The notes beneath the pieces are model-generated. The model ran no database searches. It saw only the letters and a program-made list of their open reading frames with translations, and was not told the DNA's origin. The position numbers and the translations under genes were made by a program. Positions 10,502-64,000 of a stretch of DNA of 64,000 nucleotides are shown here, piece by piece; the first letter of the stretch is position 1; every line of letters starts with the position of its first letter. Source of the DNA: an uncultured bacterium (GTDB taxonomy: Bacteria; Babelota; Babeliae; Babelales; Babelaceae); assembly GCA_963713855.1 (NCBI GenBank), contig OY970209.1, positions 1,248,001 to 1,312,000 of the forward strand, given 5' to 3'.

Positions 10502-11332
10502 ATGAAAAAGGTATTTTTAAGCTTTTTACCGTTTTTATTCATCTACACCACTGCCGCCGACGTAAAAAACTACAAAGTTGTTGAGTGCAAACTGAAGGCA
10601 ACTGTGCGAAAGACGAGAGATAGAAAAAATACTGGGCATCCTAAGCATACCCATCCCCATCTTCCTTACAAAGAGGGAACGAGCACTAACTGGTCAGGCT
10701 ATATAGCTGCAACCAATCTGACAAACCCAACGTTGAAATCAGTAAAAAGTGTTTTCGGTTCTTGGACGGTGCCTTCAGTAAGCGCATCAGCTCATAACAC
10801 TTATTGCGCTATCTGGATTGGTATAGATGGCTATACAAACGGATCTGTCGAGCAAATTGGCACTTCGCATGAATGGGTACAAGGGCGTCAAGTCGATTCA
10901 GCATGGTTTGAGATGTACCCAAACTTTTCGTACGAGATTACGGGCTTTCCTCTCAAAAAAGGTGATTTAATTGGCGCATCAGTAGTGTATTTGGGAAATA
11001 ATACCTTTCAACTATCCCTCTTTAATCACACAAGAAAAGTGCAAACAACGGTACCAACCACTCGCACGAAAGCTTCGTATGCTCAGAGAAATAGCGCTGA
11101 ATGGATAGTAGAAGCACCCTATCTTGATGGCATCTTACCGTTGTCACACTTTGGCAATGTTACGTTTTCAAACTGCCTTGCAAACATAGATGGCACGCTT
11201 GGTCCGATAGTGAACAAAAAATGGAAAGATACCACACTTACCATGGTAACAAATACGGGTATTGATAAAGCGACCGTTTCGAAATTGTCAGCAAACGGCA
11301 AAGGCTTTGAAGTTTCTTGGAGACATGAGTGA
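10502..11332 (+). CDS. Secreted glutamic peptidase, family G1 (eqolisin-like)
   Basis: Signal peptide and basic propeptide; STNWSGY, WIGIDG, EQIGT (catalytic Gln), AWFEMYP, SAEWIVEAP (catalytic Glu). Confidence 0.88.
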   Translation: MKKVFLSFLPFLFIYTTAADVKNYKVVECKLKATVRKTRDRKNTGHPKHTHPHLPYKEGTSTNWSGYIAATNLTNPTLKSVKSVFGSWTVPSVSASAHNTYCAIWIGIDGYTNGSVEQIGTSHEWVQGRQVDSAWFEMYPNFSYEITGFPLKKGDLIGASVVYLGNNTFQLSLFNHTRKVQTTVPTTRTKASYAQRNSAEWIVEAPYLDGILPLSHFGNVTFSNCLANIDGTLGPIVNKKWKDTTLTMVTNTGIDKATVSKLSANGKGFEVSWRHE

Positions 11333-12409: not shown

Positions 12410-13000
12410 TTACAATGTCTCTGATATCAATATTCCCCGCTCCAATAGGATATGTACACATTCAATAATCTCTTCAGCTTTGGTAAACGAGGTCTTGTCA
12501 TCAACCTTTGCTATCAAAGATACATAAAGCCCATAAAAATAATAAGCGAGCAAGAACATAATTCCAGCTCCAAACGCAGCGCCCATGGCTTTGAAGCCCG
12601 ATGACCTATTCCAACCGCACAATAGCAGAGTTCCTATAAGAGAAATCGTGACAGAACTGATAGCAAATTCTGAGGCACCTCTTTTTTCTCTCTCCATTCT
12701 TTGTAGCTCTAAGTGAAGAAATCTTTCAACTCGATACCGCAATAGAGGATCCGATACTAAAAGCTCTTCTAATTCAGGTAGTGAAAACTGATTTGAATAG
12801 CAGCGGTTTTCACGTCTAAGCCTAATAATCAATTTTGCAAGAAACGAATCTAAATCGTCCGCACCGATCTTTTCGCCTTTTAAGCCTAAATTTGACCATA
12901 GTGATTGCTCAAAACAGCTATCGTCAGAGTCTTGAGCACAAAGATTTAAATACGAAGAACCGTAAAACAGAACAAGCAAAAGAATGCTTTTGTTCCACAC
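12410..13000 (-). CDS. Tandem-array paralog 1: signal peptide plus two-TM hairpin protein
   Basis: GTG start with AGGAG RBS; bilobed hydrophobic region; C-terminal F...EEIIEC..ILL motif shared with neighbours. Confidence 0.75.
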   Translation of the reverse strand: MWNKSILLLVLFYGSSYLNLCAQDSDDSCFEQSLWSNLGLKGEKIGADDLDSFLAKLIIRLRRENRCYSNQFSLPELEELLVSDPLLRYRVERFLHLELQRMEREKRGASEFAISSVTISLIGTLLLCGWNRSSGFKAMGAAFGAGIMFLLAYYFYGLYVSLIAKVDDKTSFTKAEEIIECVHILLERGILISETL

Positions 13001-13036
13001 GAGGTAACTCCTTAAAAAGGGGTGCTAAAGTTCTAC

Positions 13037-13630
13037 TTAAGCCGCGTGAGAAGTCGCTATAATTTCCAACTCCTCAGCTCCTTTTAAAAGTTTTTCCAAG
13101 CACTGTATCACTTCGGTCTCACTTTTAAAAGGCTCATCATGTGAAAGGAAGAAGGTCACGTGATTGTATAAGTCAGCCGACATCACGAGAGCCCCCGTAA
13201 GTGGTATAGTGCTTATAGCGCCTAGGATAGTACTTATAACACCTGATCTTCTAGATCCCAGATAAAAGAGTGTTGCGAACAAAACATATGCCACAACGGG
13301 AGCTGTACCCATGTAAAAAAAGCTGTTTATTTCCTCATTCTCAGCTTTTTTGCTTTTGCTCATAGCAGACGCAATTGCTTCATCAAGGTGAGGAGAATCC
13401 AACAGGCTTTTTAAAATATCAACGGATAAATTGGACCTACAATCATGAAAAATTTGTTTTTCGAAAAACAGATCCATGAGATGGGCAGCTAGCTCATCGG
13501 CATTCATGTGGTCTGCAAATTGGTAAAATGTGCTCGCTTCTTTTACGCTATGATCGTCAATTTGCGCGTGTGAACTTACAAATGAGCAACTTGCTAAAAT
13601 GATGCTCATGATGAAAGAAATTTTGTACAT
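13037..13630 (-). CDS. Tandem-array paralog 2
   Basis: AGGAG RBS; same architecture; F...TEVIQC..KLL motif. Confidence 0.75.
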   Translation of the reverse strand: MYKISFIMSIILASCSFVSSHAQIDDHSVKEASTFYQFADHMNADELAAHLMDLFFEKQIFHDCRSNLSVDILKSLLDSPHLDEAIASAMSKSKKAENEEINSFFYMGTAPVVAYVLFATLFYLGSRRSGVISTILGAISTIPLTGALVMSADLYNHVTFFLSHDEPFKSETEVIQCLEKLLKGAEELEIIATSHAA

Positions 13631-13770
13631 ACCCTGACTCCTTCGAGGCGGTGAACAATTAATTATAGGTAATCTTTATCATATTTGACACGCTGCCCAC
13701 TTTTCTAAAAAAACCGTAAAAAGCGACATCTAACTCAGTAATTTGCTTTTTTCATAGTTCATTGGACAAA

Positions 13771-14376
13771 TCATGCATTATCTATTGCTTCAGCATCTTC
13801 ACTTTCTTTTAAAAGCTCTTGAAAGCACTCAATAATCTCTCCAGTCTCACTGAATCGCGTATTTTCATCAATTGTTGGCTTAAATAAAAAGCTCATATAA
13901 AACGCAAGAGCGGCTATACCTGCTGCTCCAGAAAATGATCCACAGGCTGCAGATGCGACACCCGAGCGTTTGGCCGCCAAATAGAAAAATAGCCCACTTA
14001 AAAGCGCCGATGCCAGCGCCGTTGAGCCGATTCCCATTGTGAATACTTTAGCTCTTCCCTTTCTTTTTGCTTCTTCTAAAAGGGCTCTTTCAACTCGATC
14101 CTTCAAGTTATTCGACTTTAGTAGCTTTTTTACGTCATCTTTTTCGAACTGACTTACATAGCAAGATTCAAACCTTTGGATTCTTCTTATCCAATCTTCA
14201 AGTTCCCAATCTAAGGTATCCGCATCGCTATCATTCTTTTGCAAGTTTAAAAATGACCACATAAACTCGCTTAACCTAAAAGGCTTTTTGATTGGCTCTT
14301 CAGTTTCTTTAGCGAGAATATTTACGCACACAAAACTGAGCAAAATAGCAAAAAAAAATGTACTTTTTTTCAACAC
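13771..14376 (-). CDS. Tandem-array paralog 3
   Basis: AGGAG RBS; same architecture; F...GEIIEC..ELL motif. Confidence 0.75.
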   Translation of the reverse strand: MLKKSTFFFAILLSFVCVNILAKETEEPIKKPFRLSEFMWSFLNLQKNDSDADTLDWELEDWIRRIQRFESCYVSQFEKDDVKKLLKSNNLKDRVERALLEEAKRKGRAKVFTMGIGSTALASALLSGLFFYLAAKRSGVASAACGSFSGAAGIAALAFYMSFLFKPTIDENTRFSETGEIIECFQELLKESEDAEAIDNA

Positions 14377-14463
14377 GATAACTCCTATAAAGCAAAAATA
14401 ACTAAAGACTCAATTTATATAAATATAGCCTAAAAACAAGTTATTTTTTGATTATATAAAAGC

Positions 14464-15045
14464 CTATTTTCGCACTTGCTTAGAGTGTTCTTTATAAAGA
14501 ATATGTACAAGCTCAATGATCTCGTTCTGATTTTCAAAAGAATCTCCACTTAATATAGTAAGAAGTTTTTTACTAAATTCATAAGCTTCCCCATAAGACG
14601 TTAACATAGTAAGCACGCTTATAACGAATAACGAATACCGTTGAAATCCTGTTACTTTAGCCGCAACGATGAGAACATTAGCTGAAAAAAGCATCATCCC
14701 TGTTTGCGCAACCGCATCGCCGAACACGAAGAGCAGTTGCTTAAAGTGCTCTTTTGACTCTTCCCGTAGCGCTCTTTGCACTACTGCCTCAAGATTTTCA
14801 AAATCTACTAAATCTTTTAAATCTTCAGGTAGTATGGCTTCAGCCAGTGGTGCGCCATTTCTTTTCACCCGGATTAAGTCTTCGATGGCCCTTTCTAAAT
14901 AACCTTCGCAATCACTATAATCACGCTGCAAGCCCAGATAGGGCCATGGATCAAAGCTACCTCTATTATTTTTTGCCTTAGAGCACGTACCGGCAAAGAA
15001 AGCCGTCAACAAAATGTATAAAAAGGCAAATCTTCTTATCACCAA
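14464..15045 (-). CDS. Tandem-array paralog 4
   Basis: Same architecture; W.YLGLQ and F...NEIIEL..IL motifs. Confidence 0.7.
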   Translation of the reverse strand: MVIRRFAFLYILLTAFFAGTCSKAKNNRGSFDPWPYLGLQRDYSDCEGYLERAIEDLIRVKRNGAPLAEAILPEDLKDLVDFENLEAVVQRALREESKEHFKQLLFVFGDAVAQTGMMLFSANVLIVAAKVTGFQRYSLFVISVLTMLTSYGEAYEFSKKLLTILSGDSFENQNEIIELVHILYKEHSKQVRK

Positions 15046-15055
15046 AGAAAATACC

Positions 15056-15673
15056 CTAATTTAAAAATTCACCTTCTGATTGCACTGTCTCGGCTAAATT
15101 TTGAGCTTCTTTTAGAAGTTTCCGGAGACATTCTATTACTTCATCCGAGCTAGAAAAAGGCTTATCGAGTGAAAGCTGATAGTCCACTTGTTCGTACAAA
15201 TTAAAACTTTGGACTAGAGCGATCGCCATGGGTATTACACCGGCTGCTCCTAAGCTAGTACTTGCTAAACCTGCTGTCTTGGATCCTAAAATAAAGCACG
15301 CAGCACCCACTATATATACTCCAAGAATAATGCTTCCAGAAGTAAAAAAGCCCCATATTTTTTCTTTTTCTTCTTTTTCAGCCTCTTTTAACGCTAATGC
15401 GATTCCAAGACCTAGATGATCAGAGTTCAAGACGCGTTTTAGATCTTAACTTTCTAACTCTGAATAACATTCTTTAAAAAGTCGCTTATTTTCAAGTACA
15501 TGCCGAAGATGTAAAACAAGCACATCCAAAGTCCAGCTATCTGTATTCTGATGATTAGAAATGCGGTAAGTTCCTTCTACTTCACCGTCTGTGGAGGTGT
15601 TTGCTTGTAAAGTTAAAAATGAGCAACTTGCTAAAATGATGCTGATATAAAAAAAGATCTTGTAACGTAACAT
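15056..15673 (-). pseudogene. Tandem-array paralog 5 interrupted by a single in-frame TAA
   Basis: ORFs 15446-15694 and 15056-15430 are in the same frame: ...ELES*DLKRVLNSDHL... The joined product aligns with paralog 2. Confidence 0.8.
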
Positions 15674-16135
15674 GTAACTAACTCCTTTAGGCAATATGAT
15701 TTTGATAATCTTACCGTATTGCCGGGTAAAAACAAGCGCAAAACCGTGAGGCTTATTGCGTAAAAAAATCTATCGGTATTAGATAGCAGTAGTTACAACT
15801 TCTTTATTCAGTAACGCGATTACTTATACTCCAAAAATGGAAATATAACAAAGAAGCCGATCTTTTACGGATTTCACGCGTCAGATCCAACATATCCCTA
15901 AACCCCCCTTCAAAGCATTAACAAAAGACCCGAAATGATGCAAGAAAAATAAAATAGCATTTTAAAGTTCACAATAGTAATAATGAAAGCGGAGATTTTA
16001 AACGAATGCGTTCGAAATTTACTGCTCAAATAAGGCTCTATAATTTTTACGTTACTAGTTGACAAAATTTAAGCATTTTAATAATGTTATTGCAGGTTTT
16101 TTAAATACTCAATTTTACAGCTAAGTTCGATTACT

Positions 16136-17222: not shown

Positions 17223-17633
17223 TCAGTCACCAAATACTTGCTTATGCCAATATGCTTTTTTACCTTCGTAAAACCATTTTTTGTTATTTTTGGTCATAAA
17301 TCTTTTAAGTTGCTTCATGTCTATTTTGTAACGGTAGAATAAAGCAAGTAGATCCCTCAGATCAGCATCAAGAAGTTCATCTCTCGTTACAATGAGATGT
17401 ATTGCGTCCTTAACGCCTTTAACATTGGCAATATAAGCGCCGTGTCTTAACCACTCGAAAAAAGCGATTTCGTCAACTGGTGAATAGAATATCACCCTCT
17501 TACAAATAAGAGTATTCTTATCGGTCTTTGTTGCATTCTCCTCAGCTTCATTCTGAGGATAGACGTTGTGGTGACGGCCTGAAGGATGAACAACATCCCA
17601 ATGAGGAGTATAGTAATTTTTATTCTTGTTCAT
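17223..17633 (-). CDS. Orphan immunity-like protein with N-terminal toxin-tail remnant
   Basis: Last gene of toxin operon. N-terminal PHWDVVHPSGRHHNVYP resembles a polymorphic RNase toxin C-terminus; body contains FYS..DE.AFFEWL...FYRYKIDMKQL. Confidence 0.55.
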   Translation of the reverse strand: MNKNKNYYTPHWDVVHPSGRHHNVYPQNEAEENATKTDKNTLICKRVIFYSPVDEIAFFEWLRHGAYIANVKGVKDAIHLIVTRDELLDADLRDLLALFYRYKIDMKQLKRFMTKNNKKWFYEGKKAYWHKQVFGD

Positions 17634-17664: not shown

Positions 17665-17859
17665 TCACTTTTTACCTTCGATAGCTTTAATGATACTTGC
17701 TACAACTATGTCTTGAGCCGTGGTAAGCTCTATATCTTTATTAGCAATAAGCTCTTCTATTTCTTTTTCAACAATAGGCCAAAGTGGATAGGATTTATAA
17801 TATGCTATACGTTCTTGATAAGTCATGTGCTTATTTTTTGATTTCACTTTTGCTTTCAT
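17665..17859 (-). CDS. Small hypothetical protein in toxin/immunity cluster
   Basis: Co-oriented, tightly packed ORF; start uncertain. Confidence 0.45.
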   Translation of the reverse strand: MKAKVKSKNKHMTYQERIAYYKSYPLWPIVEKEIEELIANKDIELTTAQDIVVASIIKAIEGKK

Positions 17860-17873
17860 CGATTTGAAGCTTT

Positions 17874-18269
17874 TTAGTCGCCATACCAAAAGCCATGACT
17901 AATAGTGCCACCCATGCCCTTGGCTTTTGCCTTTTGCTCAGGCGATAGACCCAGGAAATATATTCCTTCCCCTCTTTCCAAAGCTTTGCTCATATTTTTT
18001 TGCCAGTCCTTATAGATTTTGCCTTCAGGAATGATTCTTTGAGAAAATTCAAATAAAGCTTCATAAAAATAGGGAAGCGACGAAATTTCTTGTAAAGTAT
18101 CACATACTTCGATGCTTTCAACAGCAACTATTCCAAATTTTGACAAATGTTTTGTAACTATATCGAGAAGTGGCTGCGGATCTACACGATTAAAAATTCG
18201 ACCCCACGTTATGAACCCTACTATGCCAAAGGTCTTGTCCACTATCTTAATGCCAACTAAATCTTCCAT
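17874..18269 (-). CDS. Putative orphan immunity protein
   Basis: 131 aa, co-oriented directly downstream of the CdiI-like gene; assignment is from context only. Confidence 0.5.
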   Translation of the reverse strand: MEDLVGIKIVDKTFGIVGFITWGRIFNRVDPQPLLDIVTKHLSKFGIVAVESIEVCDTLQEISSLPYFYEALFEFSQRIIPEGKIYKDWQKNMSKALERGEGIYFLGLSPEQKAKAKGMGGTISHGFWYGD

Positions 18270-18309: not shown

Positions 18310-18780
18310 TTATTCTGCACATAGTAGTCCACTGTTCAAGTCTTCTAATTTTACAACCCATTCAGAAATTTTTCCCTCTTGCCCGAGATGGTATTTTGGC
18401 CCAATAAAGCTATAGCAATCGTCGACGGTAAAAGCACCTGGAGCTATTGTTTCTCTAAGAAGTTCTGAAACTAAGATTTGATTATGGAGGATGATTTTAT
18501 CGTTTTCCCTATACAGGGTCCACCAGTTAATAAAAGGTCTTTCTATCCCCGGCACCATATTAGGATTTTGCACTGTAGTCACTAGGCACGATGTTGGTAA
18601 CTTTTTTATCCTCTCAAGCCCTTCATGCCACTGTCTCTTATAATCTCCCAAGCTCCATTGAGCAACAGACATGACAAACTTTTCTTCAAAGTCGTTAATT
18701 TGTATTCTGCCCCAATAGCTAAGTAAACCATTTATTTTCTTCGGCTTATCGCTAACTACTTGTATTAATAGGCCTTTCAT
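18310..18780 (-). CDS. CdiI (Enterobacter cloacae type)-like immunity protein
   Basis: I.INDFEE.F.M....WS..DYKRQW..GL, SCLVT, FINWWTLYRE.DKI..HNQI, EG.ISEW pattern. Start overlaps toxin stop (TAATG). Confidence 0.8.
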   Translation of the reverse strand: MKGLLIQVVSDKPKKINGLLSYWGRIQINDFEEKFVMSVAQWSLGDYKRQWHEGLERIKKLPTSCLVTTVQNPNMVPGIERPFINWWTLYRENDKIILHNQILVSELLRETIAPGAFTVDDCYSFIGPKYHLGQEGKISEWVVKLEDLNSGLLCAE

Positions 18781-19640
18781 TAGTCTCCTACCCTGTCTTT
18801 TAAATCATCATCTGAGTAGGTTCCCTCACGGTTTCCATGCTTATCAAAAACTTTCCAACGACCTCCCTTATGACCATCGACATCAGGGGAAACATATCTC
18901 GTACCATCTTTAAACACAGGTTGTCCGTGAGAATCTATCGGAGCATCATTTACTTCTTTCCATCCTTTCTCACCTGCTATTTTACGGGCGTCTTTTCTGG
19001 TCATGTTCTGAATAATATCATCATAATCATAATCTACTCCACCTTTTGCACCCATCTTTCTCATCGCTCTATTAACAGCCCAAGTTGCCGCCAAAGCACC
19101 TACCGTATATACTGTCGCAGCTCCGATAGCATCCCATCCAGCAAATGCAATACCACCTGCGCCCCAGACGATCAGCGGTATAACATTATGTACAAGAATG
19201 TCTTCATGAGATATACAGAAATTTTGAAACTCCTCTACAGCGATATTGTATGCAACATCTTTCAATGCTACTGCTTTTACATGCTCAACAACAACCGGTT
19301 CAAAACAGTTCTTCAAAAGAACATGCCCAGCTTTTAGTTCATCAGCTAGAATCCAATCTTTTTCTGGCGCCAAATAAAACTTATGATCATCTGCCACAGT
19401 TATTGCTTGACCATTAACCGTAACGATAAAAAACCCACCTGCGTGCTTTTGTTGAGTGTGGGTAACTCTTCTTTCAACACATGCGCCTTGCAAATCGAAG
19501 CTGATAACGACATCATCTACTTTAAGTTTCTCGATGGGTGTATAACCTTCTGGCGTTTTGACTAATGTTCCGGCTATAAATCCTTCACCATGAGCAAGGC
19601 TTATTGTTAAAAGGCATAAAAGTATTAACATTCTTTTCAT
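18780..19640 (-). CDS. Polymorphic toxin: signal peptide - Hint domain - hydrophobic segment - Ntox21/CdiA-CT(ECL)-like RNase
   Basis: GFIAGTLVKTPEG..PIEKL...YNIAV...ILVHN Hint (aa 20-152). C-terminus SHGQPVFK.G.RYVSPDVDGHKGGRWK...REGTY...RVGD. Confidence 0.85.
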   Translation of the reverse strand: MKRMLILLCLLTISLAHGEGFIAGTLVKTPEGYTPIEKLKVDDVVISFDLQGACVERRVTHTQQKHAGGFFIVTVNGQAITVADDHKFYLAPEKDWILADELKAGHVLLKNCFEPVVVEHVKAVALKDVAYNIAVEEFQNFCISHEDILVHNVIPLIVWGAGGIAFAGWDAIGAATVYTVGALAATWAVNRAMRKMGAKGGVDYDYDDIIQNMTRKDARKIAGEKGWKEVNDAPIDSHGQPVFKDGTRYVSPDVDGHKGGRWKVFDKHGNREGTYSDDDLKDRVGD

Positions 19641-24705: not shown

Positions 24706-25572
24706 CTATGTTTGTGAGCCCCGACTCATGGTCAGATAGATTGAAAACAATATCATAAGCATGGATAGAGCGTTTCTGATAGGATAATCGGTGATTTCTC
24801 TTAATGCAGCATCACGAAATTGAGCGAATCGGGTGGGAGGTATAAAGCGAGGTGTTTCCAAAACCCTAGCCCATTCAGCATGAACAAATTGCTCAGCAGC
24901 TCCAAGCCTTTCCGCAAGATTTTCATCTCCCAGTTGCTCTTGTTCCCAGTGCACCAAATCTATAAGAAGTTGAAGAGGAGTTTGGGTCACATCAGCAGTT
25001 GTTGCTTCTGGGTCAGCACCGTGAGCAACTAAATATTCCATTAAAAACCAGTCACCTTCAATAGCCGCTATCTGAAAAGGGGTTAAAGCAAGAAAAAAGT
25101 CACTATTCCATATCGGGGCAGGACCGTTAAAAAGGCCCCTCTTATCACCAAGAATAGCTGTTAGACCAATTATTACCAATCCAGGCCTAAAGAGCCAGAG
25201 GACTGGTTCATTAATACCGTGGGTTTGAAAATAAGTATCAAGATACTTTCTTCTTTGCTCAGGATCTTCCGTGCCATGAACGTCCATTCTACCGTACGAC
25301 CTGCCATCGTCTAAAGCACGAACCATCCCTACTGCTGCTGTGTCTTCCGAGAGAAAACTAGGCACATTAGCTATTCTATAACTCCTTCTGCCATGAATAT
25401 TCTCAGTACCCACTACCCGAAATTCCATGGATCCTGAAAAATGCTCTGTAGGAGGAAGATTCTTAGAGGCCTTCCTGCCAACTTCATTTCTGTTTTCATA
25501 CGGACGTTCTGGGTGGTGCATAGCGTGCAATGAGGTAACGCCTAGAAGTGCAAAAAATAAAAATCTCTTCAT
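24706..25572 (-). CDS. Secreted protein with ankyrin-like repeat and C-terminal TM (paralog A)
   Basis: Signal peptide; TPFQIAAIEGD...YLVAHGADP; C-terminal hydrophobic helix. Confidence 0.75.
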   Translation of the reverse strand: MKRFLFFALLGVTSLHAMHHPERPYENRNEVGRKASKNLPPTEHFSGSMEFRVVGTENIHGRRSYRIANVPSFLSEDTAAVGMVRALDDGRSYGRMDVHGTEDPEQRRKYLDTYFQTHGINEPVLWLFRPGLVIIGLTAILGDKRGLFNGPAPIWNSDFFLALTPFQIAAIEGDWFLMEYLVAHGADPEATTADVTQTPLQLLIDLVHWEQEQLGDENLAERLGAAEQFVHAEWARVLETPRFIPPTRFAQFRDAALREITDYPIRNALSMLMILFSIYLTMSRGSQT

Positions 25573-25709
25573 TGTAATCCTTAACCTGGAAGGTCATAAT
25601 AATTTCAGATGTATAATTATTATAAACAAATAAAGGGCATTTCTCAACCATTTCACTTCAGACGCAGCTTTTCATCTGAATCTTTATTCAATCGCTAGAA
25701 GCTTTATGA

Positions 25710-26516
25710 TTATGCTTGAAAGCCATTTTGTGTAAGATAGAGTGCAACCAAGATACACATGAGCAAAGTTAAATCTCTTATAGGATGAGTGACAAGCTCG
25801 TTAATCGCACCATCACGAAATCTTGTCATTGCGTTATTTGAAGCACGTGGTGCCTGTAAAATTCTAGACCATTCAGCGCGAACAAATTGCTCAGCAGCTT
25901 CTTTTCGTTCATCAAGATCGTCTGTACCTAACATCTCTTGTTCCCATCTTACCAAGTTAATAAGAAGCTCAAGAGGAGTGAAAGCCACTTCCTCGGTTGT
26001 CCCTTCGGGGTTGGCGTCGTGAGCTAGTAAATATTCAATCGCATCCCAATCACCTTCCGCTGCTGCAATTTGAAGATACGTCATCGAAAGGAAAAATTTA
26101 CTCTTCCAAATGGTCTTGTCGCCTTCATAATGAATTACTTGGTTTCTCATAGAAGCCACTAACCCGTCAATCTGTACTTCCCGCCGATAAACATAGGTAT
26201 CTTGGCCATCAATGTCGTGAGTTTTAAAATACTCCTCTAGCTTTCGTCTTCCACCCACACTATTAAGATCCACGCCAAATCTTCTTGCCTGCAAAGGGTT
26301 ATTCGGGTCAAGTGTTCTTAACGAATATGTATGACCTCCTATTACGATATATGCACCAATATGCAGAGTTTCAGATTGCTGCGGATAAGTTCTTTGAGCT
26401 TTCGTACCAACCTCATCTCTGTGTTCGTACGGGCACTCCACTTCCTTTCTTTCTTCCATTGCACGAAGTGAAACAGCAAAAAATAGCAGCAGTAAAGCAT
26501 GCAAGCTCTTTTTCAT
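25710..26516 (-). CDS. Secreted protein with ankyrin-like repeat and C-terminal TM (paralog B)
   Basis: Shares PYE.R.EVG.KA, QIAA.EGDW, LI.LV.WEQE.LG and AAEQFV.AEW with paralog A. Confidence 0.75.
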   Translation of the reverse strand: MKKSLHALLLLFFAVSLRAMEERKEVECPYEHRDEVGTKAQRTYPQQSETLHIGAYIVIGGHTYSLRTLDPNNPLQARRFGVDLNSVGGRRKLEEYFKTHDIDGQDTYVYRREVQIDGLVASMRNQVIHYEGDKTIWKSKFFLSMTYLQIAAAEGDWDAIEYLLAHDANPEGTTEEVAFTPLELLINLVRWEQEMLGTDDLDERKEAAEQFVRAEWSRILQAPRASNNAMTRFRDGAINELVTHPIRDLTLLMCILVALYLTQNGFQA

Positions 26517-63345: not shown

Positions 63346-64000
63346 ATGAAAGCATTCTTTACGATCCTTGCCTTGACCCATATAAGCCTAGCTCTTGGTT
63401 ACGGTTTTCCAGCCGGCACCCTTATAAGGACTACCAAAGCCCTCAAGCCTATAGAAATGATTACCCTCGACGATCGAGCAGAGTATTGTGAACCAGATAG
63501 TGTTGTAGATAACGCGCGGGTAATGAATGCGTTTAAAGTGCCACCGCAAAGATCTACAGAATTTAAGCTTGAGGGAGGCGCCTCATTTGAAGCTGCTAGC
63601 GATCATTTACTTCTCGTGGAGCGTGCAGATCACACCGGATGGCAAAGAGCCGATTCGATAAATGCTGGAGATAAGCTTATTGGCTGTGACACACAGGTGA
63701 AGGTCATTGAAAAAAGAAATTGGAAGAACCAAGATAATTTTTACGGACTATCTGCAAGTGGTCCTTCCTATTTTAACGTCGGCCCTTTTGGTATTTATGC
63801 CAACAATATGATCCAATCTGACTATGGTGACCTTCAAGAAGACATAGACAAAGCAAAAACCTCAACCGCTAAATATGCAGGGGCGCTCTTAGGCCTTTTC
63901 TTGCCAGAACTTTGTATGATGCTCTCCAAAAAGCATACTCCTCTATCGTTAAGATTGTTCATTGACGCGATTGGCGTAGCAATTGGGGCCGGGCTTTCTC
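63346..64000 (+). CDS. Signal peptide plus Hint-domain protein (3' truncated by window edge)
   Basis: Manual translation MKAFFTILALTHISLALGYGFPAGTLIRT...KPIE...AASDH...WQRADSINAGD...FYGLS...YFNVG..GIYANN|MIQ..., open to 64000; AGGA RBS. Confidence 0.75.
   Translation, partial: MKAFFTILALTHISLALGYGFPAGTLIRTTKALKPIEMITLDDRAEYCEPDSVVDNARVMNAFKVPPQRSTEFKLEGGASFEAASDHLLLVERADHTGWQRADSINAGDKLIGCDTQVKVIEKRNWKNQDNFYGLSASGPSYFNVGPFGIYANNMIQSDYGDLQEDIDKAKTSTAKYAGALLGLFLPELCMMLSKKHTPLSLRLFIDAIGVAIGAGLS

Follow-up and report, generated by a model that had tools for sequence, protein, structure and literature searches.

How could a nuclease toxin of only 286 amino acids be delivered, and against whom would it be aimed? 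The question arises from a locus in which the assigned domains account for the whole protein chain and a large filamentous CdiA carrier is absent. We examined this locus within a window of 64,000 nucleotides (the whole stretch of DNA that was analysed), which comes from a genome of the phylum Babelota represented by one 1.52-Mb contig that is 91% complete. A protein this small would allow a direct test of the route by which a nuclease lacking stalk, cage or needle gets into a target cytoplasm.

The preliminary description of this DNA had proposed a signal peptide, a Hint domain, a Gly/Ala-rich segment and a toxic tip, translationally coupled to a gene resembling CdiI(ECL). This architecture was borne out by the open reading frames and by the Pfam and PDB searches (Table 1). 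All three of the families that it had named were matched: PT-HINT at aa 26-152 (E 4.6e-12, above the cut-off), Ntox21 at aa 224-286 (E 8.8e-10), and CdiI_N in the 156-aa product of the downstream gene (E 6e-18), which also matched the CdiI chain 4NTQ_B (E 2e-9). The coupling is likewise supported by a TAATG in which the toxin stop and the immunity-gene start overlap, with GGAG immediately 5' of it. The leader, judged by eye and with a hydrophobicity window, consists of MKR, a hydrophobic core and A-H-G, and a hydrophobic leader is present in 114 of 121 members of the Hint family described below; lipoprotein anchoring was considered and rejected because a lipobox is absent by eye. The upstream neighbour is a divergent DUF34/NIF3 gene (Pfam). 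Scans for promoters (8 found, 8.3 expected) and terminators (2 found, 1.6 expected) stayed at chance level, and NCBIfam gave no name to any of the five window proteins searched. A look-up listed no sequencing run for the locus, a result that has no bearing on whether it is expressed. The gene pair itself stood as described, but its surroundings had been drawn too narrowly, two orphan immunity modules downstream having been missed.

Table 1. Features of the toxin locus and of a paralogue at the window end (positions in the window).
Feature	Position	Strand	Basis
286-aa toxin gene	18780-19640	-	ORF list
Sec-type signal peptide, aa 1-18 (predicted cleavage after A-H-G)	19587..19640	-	sequence
Hint domain (PT-HINT / A-type BIL-like), aa 20-152	19185..19583	-	Pfam, PDB sequence search, alignment
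Gly/Ala-rich hydrophobic segment, aa 153-189, then basic patch; putative membrane-entry hairpin	19074..19184	-	function inferred
Ntox21 / CdiA-CT(ECL)-type 16S rRNase tip (predicted), aa 212-286	18780..19007	-	profile + alignment
Cognate immunity gene, CdiI_N family, 156 aa, without signal peptide, translationally coupled	18310..18780	-	
Orphan immunity gene, 131 aa, no tip in front	17874..18269	-	relative comparison
74-aa ORF inside cassette string	17665..17889	-	weak DUF3102 match below cut-off
Orphan module, 136 aa: Ntox37 tip remnant and Ntox37-type immunity, fused in frame	17223..17633	-	
Divergent Hint paralogue, 266 aa, extends beyond window end	63346..64000 (G000:C1:1311346-1312146)	+	

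The identity of the tip can be predicted with some precision. In a PDB sequence search, aa 214-277 matched CdiA-CT 4NTQ_A (E 5e-11). The active site of the ECL toxin consists of D203, D205, H207 and K214, and the enzyme cuts 16S rRNA at A1493/G1494 (PMC9086364); counted on the PDB alignment, all four residues are kept, as D253, D255, H257 and K263. Both the Ntox21 profile match and the D-x-D-x-H...K pattern are present, and by homology the tip is a 16S rRNase that would cut the decoding site as CdiA-CT(ECL) and colicin E3 do. Ntox21 tips are followed by a CdiI_N gene in 8 of 10 cases in the family.

Release of this tip would fall to the Hint domain, for which the PDB search matched aa 20-152 to the BIL domain 2LWY (E 3e-12). 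The profile match and the terminal His151-Asn152 are those of A-type BIL and PT-HINT domains. Protein splicing was rejected, however, because the nucleophiles are missing: Gly20 replaces Cys1, and Ala83 in block B and the +1 residue Val153 stand where Thr/His and Cys/Ser/Thr would be needed, the first position calling for Cys/Ser. When 117 full domains were aligned, 112 had Gly at position 1, 4 had Ala, 1 had Ser and none had Cys. At the block-B His position 97 carry Gln and 13 retain His, whereas the terminal His is kept in 115 and the terminal Asn in 116; Met, Phe, Ile or Val usually occupies +1. The window copy is atypical in retaining the block-B His (His86) and in carrying Gln139 at the block-F His position, where 101 of the 117 keep the His, so that its cleavage may be slow. 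Cys1 and the block-B residues drive the N-terminal chemistry, and C-terminal cleavage of A-type BIL domains proceeds through Asn (PMC7765530). The absence of Cys1, the frequent Gln in block B and the preserved His-Asn lead us to expect a Hint that is degenerate in one direction and should cut solely at its C-terminus. The half of the Hint chemistry that the family has thus lost is the one for which removal of the signal peptide leaves no use. The earlier proposal that Hint autocleavage frees the tip fits this residue pattern, as C-terminal release only, and the family would be a source of natural cleave-only Hint domains.

The predicted cut would expose a segment of 37 amino acids. Its best 19-residue Kyte-Doolittle value is 1.49; the family median for the post-Hint segment is 1.8, against about 1.5 in the window copy, and a polytopic transporter in the window, taken as a control, has eight of nine peaks at 2.05-2.59 and one at 1.48. 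The hydrophobic segment noted earlier is therefore present but only moderately hydrophobic, and the accompanying idea of a small membrane-inserting toxin has to be divided, in that the predicted toxic activity is that of a nuclease and membrane insertion is deduced from a segment of modest hydrophobicity. Behind the Hint, 107 of 117 members nevertheless have a hydrophobic stretch, compared with 13 of 208 control domains (internal or tandem domains from search matches, in toxins plus other proteins); it is missing or weak in 10 of the 117, some of them bearing nuclease-type tips. The residues that follow it are basic, with a mean of 2.4 K/R per 12 residues against 1.7 further downstream, so that a membrane anchor also fits. 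At least six phylum members have a Gly/Ala peptide as the only post-Hint part, followed by a small hydrophobic ORF, which suggests that this type of segment can act on membranes by itself.

The preliminary description had envisaged a wider group of signal peptide-Hint proteins with variable tips, and such a family was found, with 7 copies in the source genome, the window copy included. The PT-HINT profile matched 89 of 261 phylum genomes, and a family profile built from 58 members matched 111 of 261, a figure that takes in weak hits, inspected in part (85 of 189 high-quality genomes; 16 of 21 families). Picked among the best-scoring matches, 114 fetched loci and the window yielded 125 distinct Hint ORFs with a median length of 347 aa. 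In a second sample of 37 members, of which one duplicates a locus already included, all 37 carry the segment, 34 begin with a signal-like leader and none has Cys1. The carrier is also present beyond the phylum, in 3 of 41 genomes of a second group, all three of 1.6-1.8 Mb; four weaker hits in that group lie in long proteins, and the three of these that were read have Cys1. In two members of this second lineage (L127 and L133, in G316) the carrier bears a GH19 lysozyme-like tip, and the partner that follows is FG-GAP-like and has a signal-like N-terminus. Both GH19 members lack the segment whereas an Ntox24 member has it, which fits a segment needed only for cytoplasmic cargo, the contrast being drawn from two GH19 paralogues in one genome.

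A match labelled Berkiella was treated as probably misbinned because its contig measures 2.4 kb and no other match occurs among 36 genomes of that order. Low-sensitivity pattern scans confirmed no relative on viral contigs or, with a single-protein query, on metagenome contigs, and matches in 34 plasmid records were generic Hint domains of about 32% identity. P0017, P0021, P0023 and others form a separate group of long proteins in which three to ten Hint domains lie in tandem, many of these domains having Lys at +1. CdiI_N tandem arrays occur at G018:C33:17109-23118, G258:C5:396590-400970 and G019:C3:114912-118704 (10, 6 and 6 matches per genome), and G258, G107 and G108 have CdiI_N matches and no family Hint match.

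Of the 120 post-Hint parts scanned, 32 matched a toxin family in Pfam (two of the 32 fall below the curated cut-off), namely Ntox37 in 13, Ntox21 in 10, the colicin-E3 Cytotoxic domain in 5, and Ntox33, Ntox35, Ntox17 and EndoU in 1 each; the remaining 88 had no toxin-family match. A 17-member tip cluster matched the CdiA toxin 5T87 (E 2e-21). An E3-like cluster matched colicin E3 weakly (E 0.064) and gave a probability of 21% in a profile comparison with the Ntox21 tips, and one tip cluster stayed unassigned after the PDB search. Atlas searches with two tips that lack Pfam names returned no named family, and Pfam gave no bacteriocin match. Judged by their sequences, the tips would mostly be CDI/colicin-type RNases. 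L003, L004, L012, L064, L101 and L110 have as their sole cargo a bacteriocin-like Gly/Ala hydrophobic peptide of 72-111 aa.

A close downstream ORF is present in 109 of 117 complete members, and among 107 downstream genes Pfam recognised DUF6980 in 17, CdiI_N in 8, CdiI_ImmP in 3, DUF4279 in 1 and a few unrelated families. The family may supply many new tip/immunity pairs, such as DUF6980 as putative immunity to colicin-E3-like tips (17 cases). Clustering of 114 members gave 29 tip clusters and 32 partner clusters. Members of the same tip cluster had the same immunity cluster in 424 of 781 pairs, compared with a mean of 59 and a maximum of 91 after shuffling, although the genomes are related, so that family counts are not independent and this co-variation is inflated. 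In the second sample, tip and partner were compatible in all 29 members in which both could be assigned, 25 exactly and 4 at the broader family level.

Tip swaps could be followed in individual genomes. Two proteins of G241 share 154 of 157 N-terminal residues and 11 of 80 tip residues, and two of G008 share 155 of 162 N-terminal residues and carry Ntox37 and Ntox17 tips, respectively. Among eight close pairs picked from the tree, unrelated tips lie behind near-identical N-termini in six and related tips in two, and the closest starred clade to the window protein (FastTree) mixes Ntox21 and Ntox37-type tips. These comparisons show tips being exchanged by recombination behind a constant carrier. 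A constant N-terminus with an exchangeable tip, an immunity gene downstream and orphan cassettes, the marks of polymorphic toxins, are all found here.

The orphan modules downstream of the window pair have relatives elsewhere in the phylum. The product of the 131-aa orphan is 44% identical to that of the gene after an Ntox17-like tip in G008; in the 136-aa module the tip remnant is about 20 aa long (about 17550-17612) and the immunity part is 62% identical to an Ntox37-type immunity protein of G021. Across the family, extra immunity genes are present in 35 of the 81 loci whose sequence extends 600 bases or more past the cognate gene, and of these 59 genes 3 have a tip in front and 56 do not. 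At 14 of the 81 loci the extra gene belongs to another family than the cognate, and those of the cognate's own family, at 21 of the 35 loci, may be duplicates. A hydrophobic N-terminus occurs in 0 of 84 immunity proteins of soluble-tip clusters. Such genes show cells retaining predicted immunity against tips carried by relatives, and immunity retained without a toxin would be best explained by toxins that arrive from those relatives.

Two paralogues in the source genome (G000) form intact pairs, one with Ntox33 and DUF4279 at 1478100 and one (L032, G000:C1:712335-714067) with a helical, charged tip that has no family match; pairs related to L032, and three extra immunity genes, occur in G009. 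In the copy at 1471450 a stop and a frameshift interrupt an Ntox37-type tip, and the copy near 635640 is frameshifted, breaks that may be assembly errors. In L033 (G000:C1:905411-906043) an acidic spacer and one hydrophobic helix follow the Hint and no toxin was recognised. The Hint of the divergent paralogue at the window end closes with Asn-Asn, and behind it an acidic spacer leads into two hydrophobic stretches; neither a tip nor an immunity gene was recognised there, and the protein may be a domesticated membrane protein. A stand-alone Ntox37-type immunity gene lies at G000:C1:690122-690472, away from any Hint gene.

The window holds other secreted-looking proteins. On the minus strand at 12410-15694, about six short ORFs that resemble paralogues lie in tandem; judged by eye, they have a signal-like N-terminus and one or two hydrophobic helices each, and several end in a similar 'E(V/I)IEC...LL' stretch. 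Two adjacent similar proteins of 288 and 268 aa with a common ankyrin-like stretch lie at 24706-26516 (minus strand), and a Peptidase_A4 (glutamic peptidase family) protein lies at 10502-11332 (plus strand; E 7e-32).

As for export, the source genome encodes two secretins, TLC ADP/ATP translocases and 117 ankyrin matches. Two gspD copies and many ankyrins have been reported in TM6/Dependentiae (PMC4776705, PMC4378268), and type II secretion and vesicles in the phylum (PMC4378268, PMC6561590). RHS, PAAR, VipB (T6SS sheath) and TrbI/VirB10 had no match in the 91%-complete genome, the controls being positive, which extends to the whole genome the earlier statement that no RHS or PAAR carrier is present; a ShlB search was also without a match, and control genomes were equally silent. 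Among 43 members, the 38 with an upstream ORF gave three small clusters only (3, 2 and 2), a MafA-like partner was rejected because no upstream family is conserved, and no receptor-binding domain or conserved partner gene was found.

We believe that the locus probably encodes a minimal polymorphic toxin aimed at related bacteria. The precursor would pass Sec and lose its signal peptide, leaving the Hint as the N-terminal domain, and the coupled CdiI, to judge from homology and co-occurrence, would shield the producer's cytoplasm. Exit from the periplasm, the weakest step, might use the type II secretin or outer-membrane vesicles. The Hint, given its residue pattern, would cut at Asn152 only, by Asn cyclisation, and free a fragment of 134 aa (14.6 kDa) with the hydrophobic segment first. 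This segment would carry the tip across the inner membrane of the target bacterium, where the tip, whose catalytic residues are in place, would by homology cut the 16S rRNA decoding site. The likely targets are other phylum members encountered in the same protist cell or vacuole. The orphan cytoplasmic immunity arrays and the lysozyme-like cargo of the second lineage point to bacteria as the target. Bacteria had been one of the two targets suggested at the outset; the other, the host's organellar ribosomes, gained no support. The occurrence of the system in 111 of 261 genomes, together with the orphan arrays, suggests that these reduced parasites compete with relatives inside their hosts.

We further put forward, tentatively and with rather less confidence, a 'Hint-leader' delivery class in which the half-dead intein domain is the whole carrier (a pro-domain and perhaps a targeting module) and in which its self-cut exposes a membrane-entry hairpin used only for cargo that acts in the cytoplasm or on the membrane. 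If this class is real, it would give this phylum of obligate protist parasites its first described interbacterial weapon and would imply routine strain-against-strain fighting within one host cell.

The features that the preferred reading leans on could be arranged differently. Were the segment a stop-transfer anchor, the Hint would be periplasmic and the nuclease would sit in the producer's own cytoplasm, bound to CdiI, as a dormancy or abortive-infection switch or as a toxin transferred solely by membrane fusion or vesicles. NRAMRK directly after the segment in the window copy, at least two K/R within the 12 residues after it in 71 of 105 members, the cytoplasmic immunity protein and the lack of any recognised exporter or receptor-binding domain are all compatible with such a self-acting module. 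We nonetheless regard it as unlikely: the segment, Gly-rich and about 40 aa long, is less hydrophobic than most true control helices, the tips are common to inter-bacterial CDI toxins, and orphan immunity of other families, with two examples in the window, would make little sense.

The fragment might also be directed at the protist, attacking its mitochondrial (bacterial-type) ribosomes or other RNA, or addicting the host to the bacterium. The N-terminus of the released fragment, moderately hydrophobic and with a basic flank, would resemble a mitochondrial signal anchor. The ankyrins and ADP/ATP translocases make the genome look like that of an intracellular parasite, the host mitochondrion envelops one phylum member, which also releases vesicles in the food vacuole (PMC6561590), and host addiction has been hypothesised for the toxin systems of a Bodo endosymbiont (PMC8163844). 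A host effector is nevertheless quite unlikely in our view, because immunity proteins remain in the bacterial cytoplasm and their genes accumulate as orphans, tips and immunity change together in the manner of bacterial arms races, the second lineage places peptidoglycan-type cargo on the same carrier, and no eukaryote-specific effector was recognised among the 120 tips scanned (88 without a toxin-family match). The decoding site is a target universal in bacteria, which would equally suit a broad-spectrum antibacterial released in the food vacuole against prey or unrelated co-resident symbionts, with orphan immunity as leftovers of tip replacement. Replacement itself is shown by the tip remnant in one window orphan, and protists co-host several symbiont phyla (PMC12644861). 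We consider this the least probable of the alternatives, since no tip precedes 56 of the 59 extra immunity genes and one gene in the source genome stands alone, immunity kept without a toxin suggests a toxin coming in from kin, and the genome's own 16S rRNA keeps the decoding-site sequence.

We searched for earlier descriptions of a Hint-first, stalk-less family and found none in the literature covered, which is thin in subscription journals and excludes supplements. The available text of the genome papers on the phylum describes Sec and type II secretion only and no polymorphic toxins, and a term look-up found no mention of an intein or Hint domain in three papers on the phylum and no 'toxin' in a fourth. 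The accessible portion of PMC12644861 reports no toxin-antitoxin systems in its Babelota genomes, and that of PMC8163844 describes polymorphic toxins alongside a T6SS in a protist symbiont and leaves Hint unmentioned. In UmbC a HINT sits at the stalk tip (PMC11062931).

Each part of the locus has a known counterpart. The toxin domain, the four catalytic residues and the immunity family are those of E. cloacae CdiA-CT/CdiI (4NTQ), but stalk and pre-toxin motif are lacking in a protein of 286 aa in total. The Hint resembles the A-type BIL 2LWY in sequence family and terminal His-Asn, and 2LWY is also without Cys1 in the alignment; C-terminal cleavage is common to A-type BIL domains (PMC7765530) and, as predicted, to the present family, which differs in its family-wide Gly1 and block-B Gln, in having no N-extein after signal removal and in its hydrophobic +1 residue. 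Unlike Rhs and T6SS effectors, the system has no matching RHS repeats, PAAR or sheath genes in its genome. Gly/Ala-rich bacteriocins and microcins are leader-processed by an ABC-transporter peptidase; the members with Gly/Ala peptide cargo and a small hydrophobic ORF recall them, but release here is predicted to come from the built-in Hint after Sec export.

The closest parallels are secreted polymorphic toxins. MafBI of Neisseria has the order signal-DUF1020-Hint-toxin and is accompanied by the exporter MafA and by MafI (PMC7738311, PMC9263626). Shared with it are the Sec signal, a Hint ahead of a variable tip, a cognate immunity gene and downstream cassettes; the present family differs in that DUF1020 is unmatched by Pfam and the Hint begins at aa 20, straight after the signal, in that 43 members have no conserved MafA-like upstream gene, and in its conserved hydrophobic segment after the Hint and its dispersed copies, where MafBI forms islands. 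Zhang 2012 (PMC3482391) lists HINT among the peptidases of Sec/T2SS toxins in Table 1 and notes that toxins of endosymbionts have N-terminal domains particular to their lineage (MAFB-N, Microscilla-N, APD1/2). With these toxins our family has in common a signal peptide, a releasing HINT, a lineage-specific constant N-terminus and Ntox21/33/35/37/17 tips, but there the HINT lies between pre-toxin domains and toxin (PMC3113570), whereas here the Hint is itself the constant N-terminal domain. The stalk-less class proposed at the outset is therefore real as a family, though not wholly new, since Sec, HINT and toxin are already combined in Zhang 2012 and MafBI has been characterised with an additional DUF1020. 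None of its component parts is new; what appears to be described here for the first time is the Hint-first, cleave-only, stalk-less carrier, together with its spread in the phylum.
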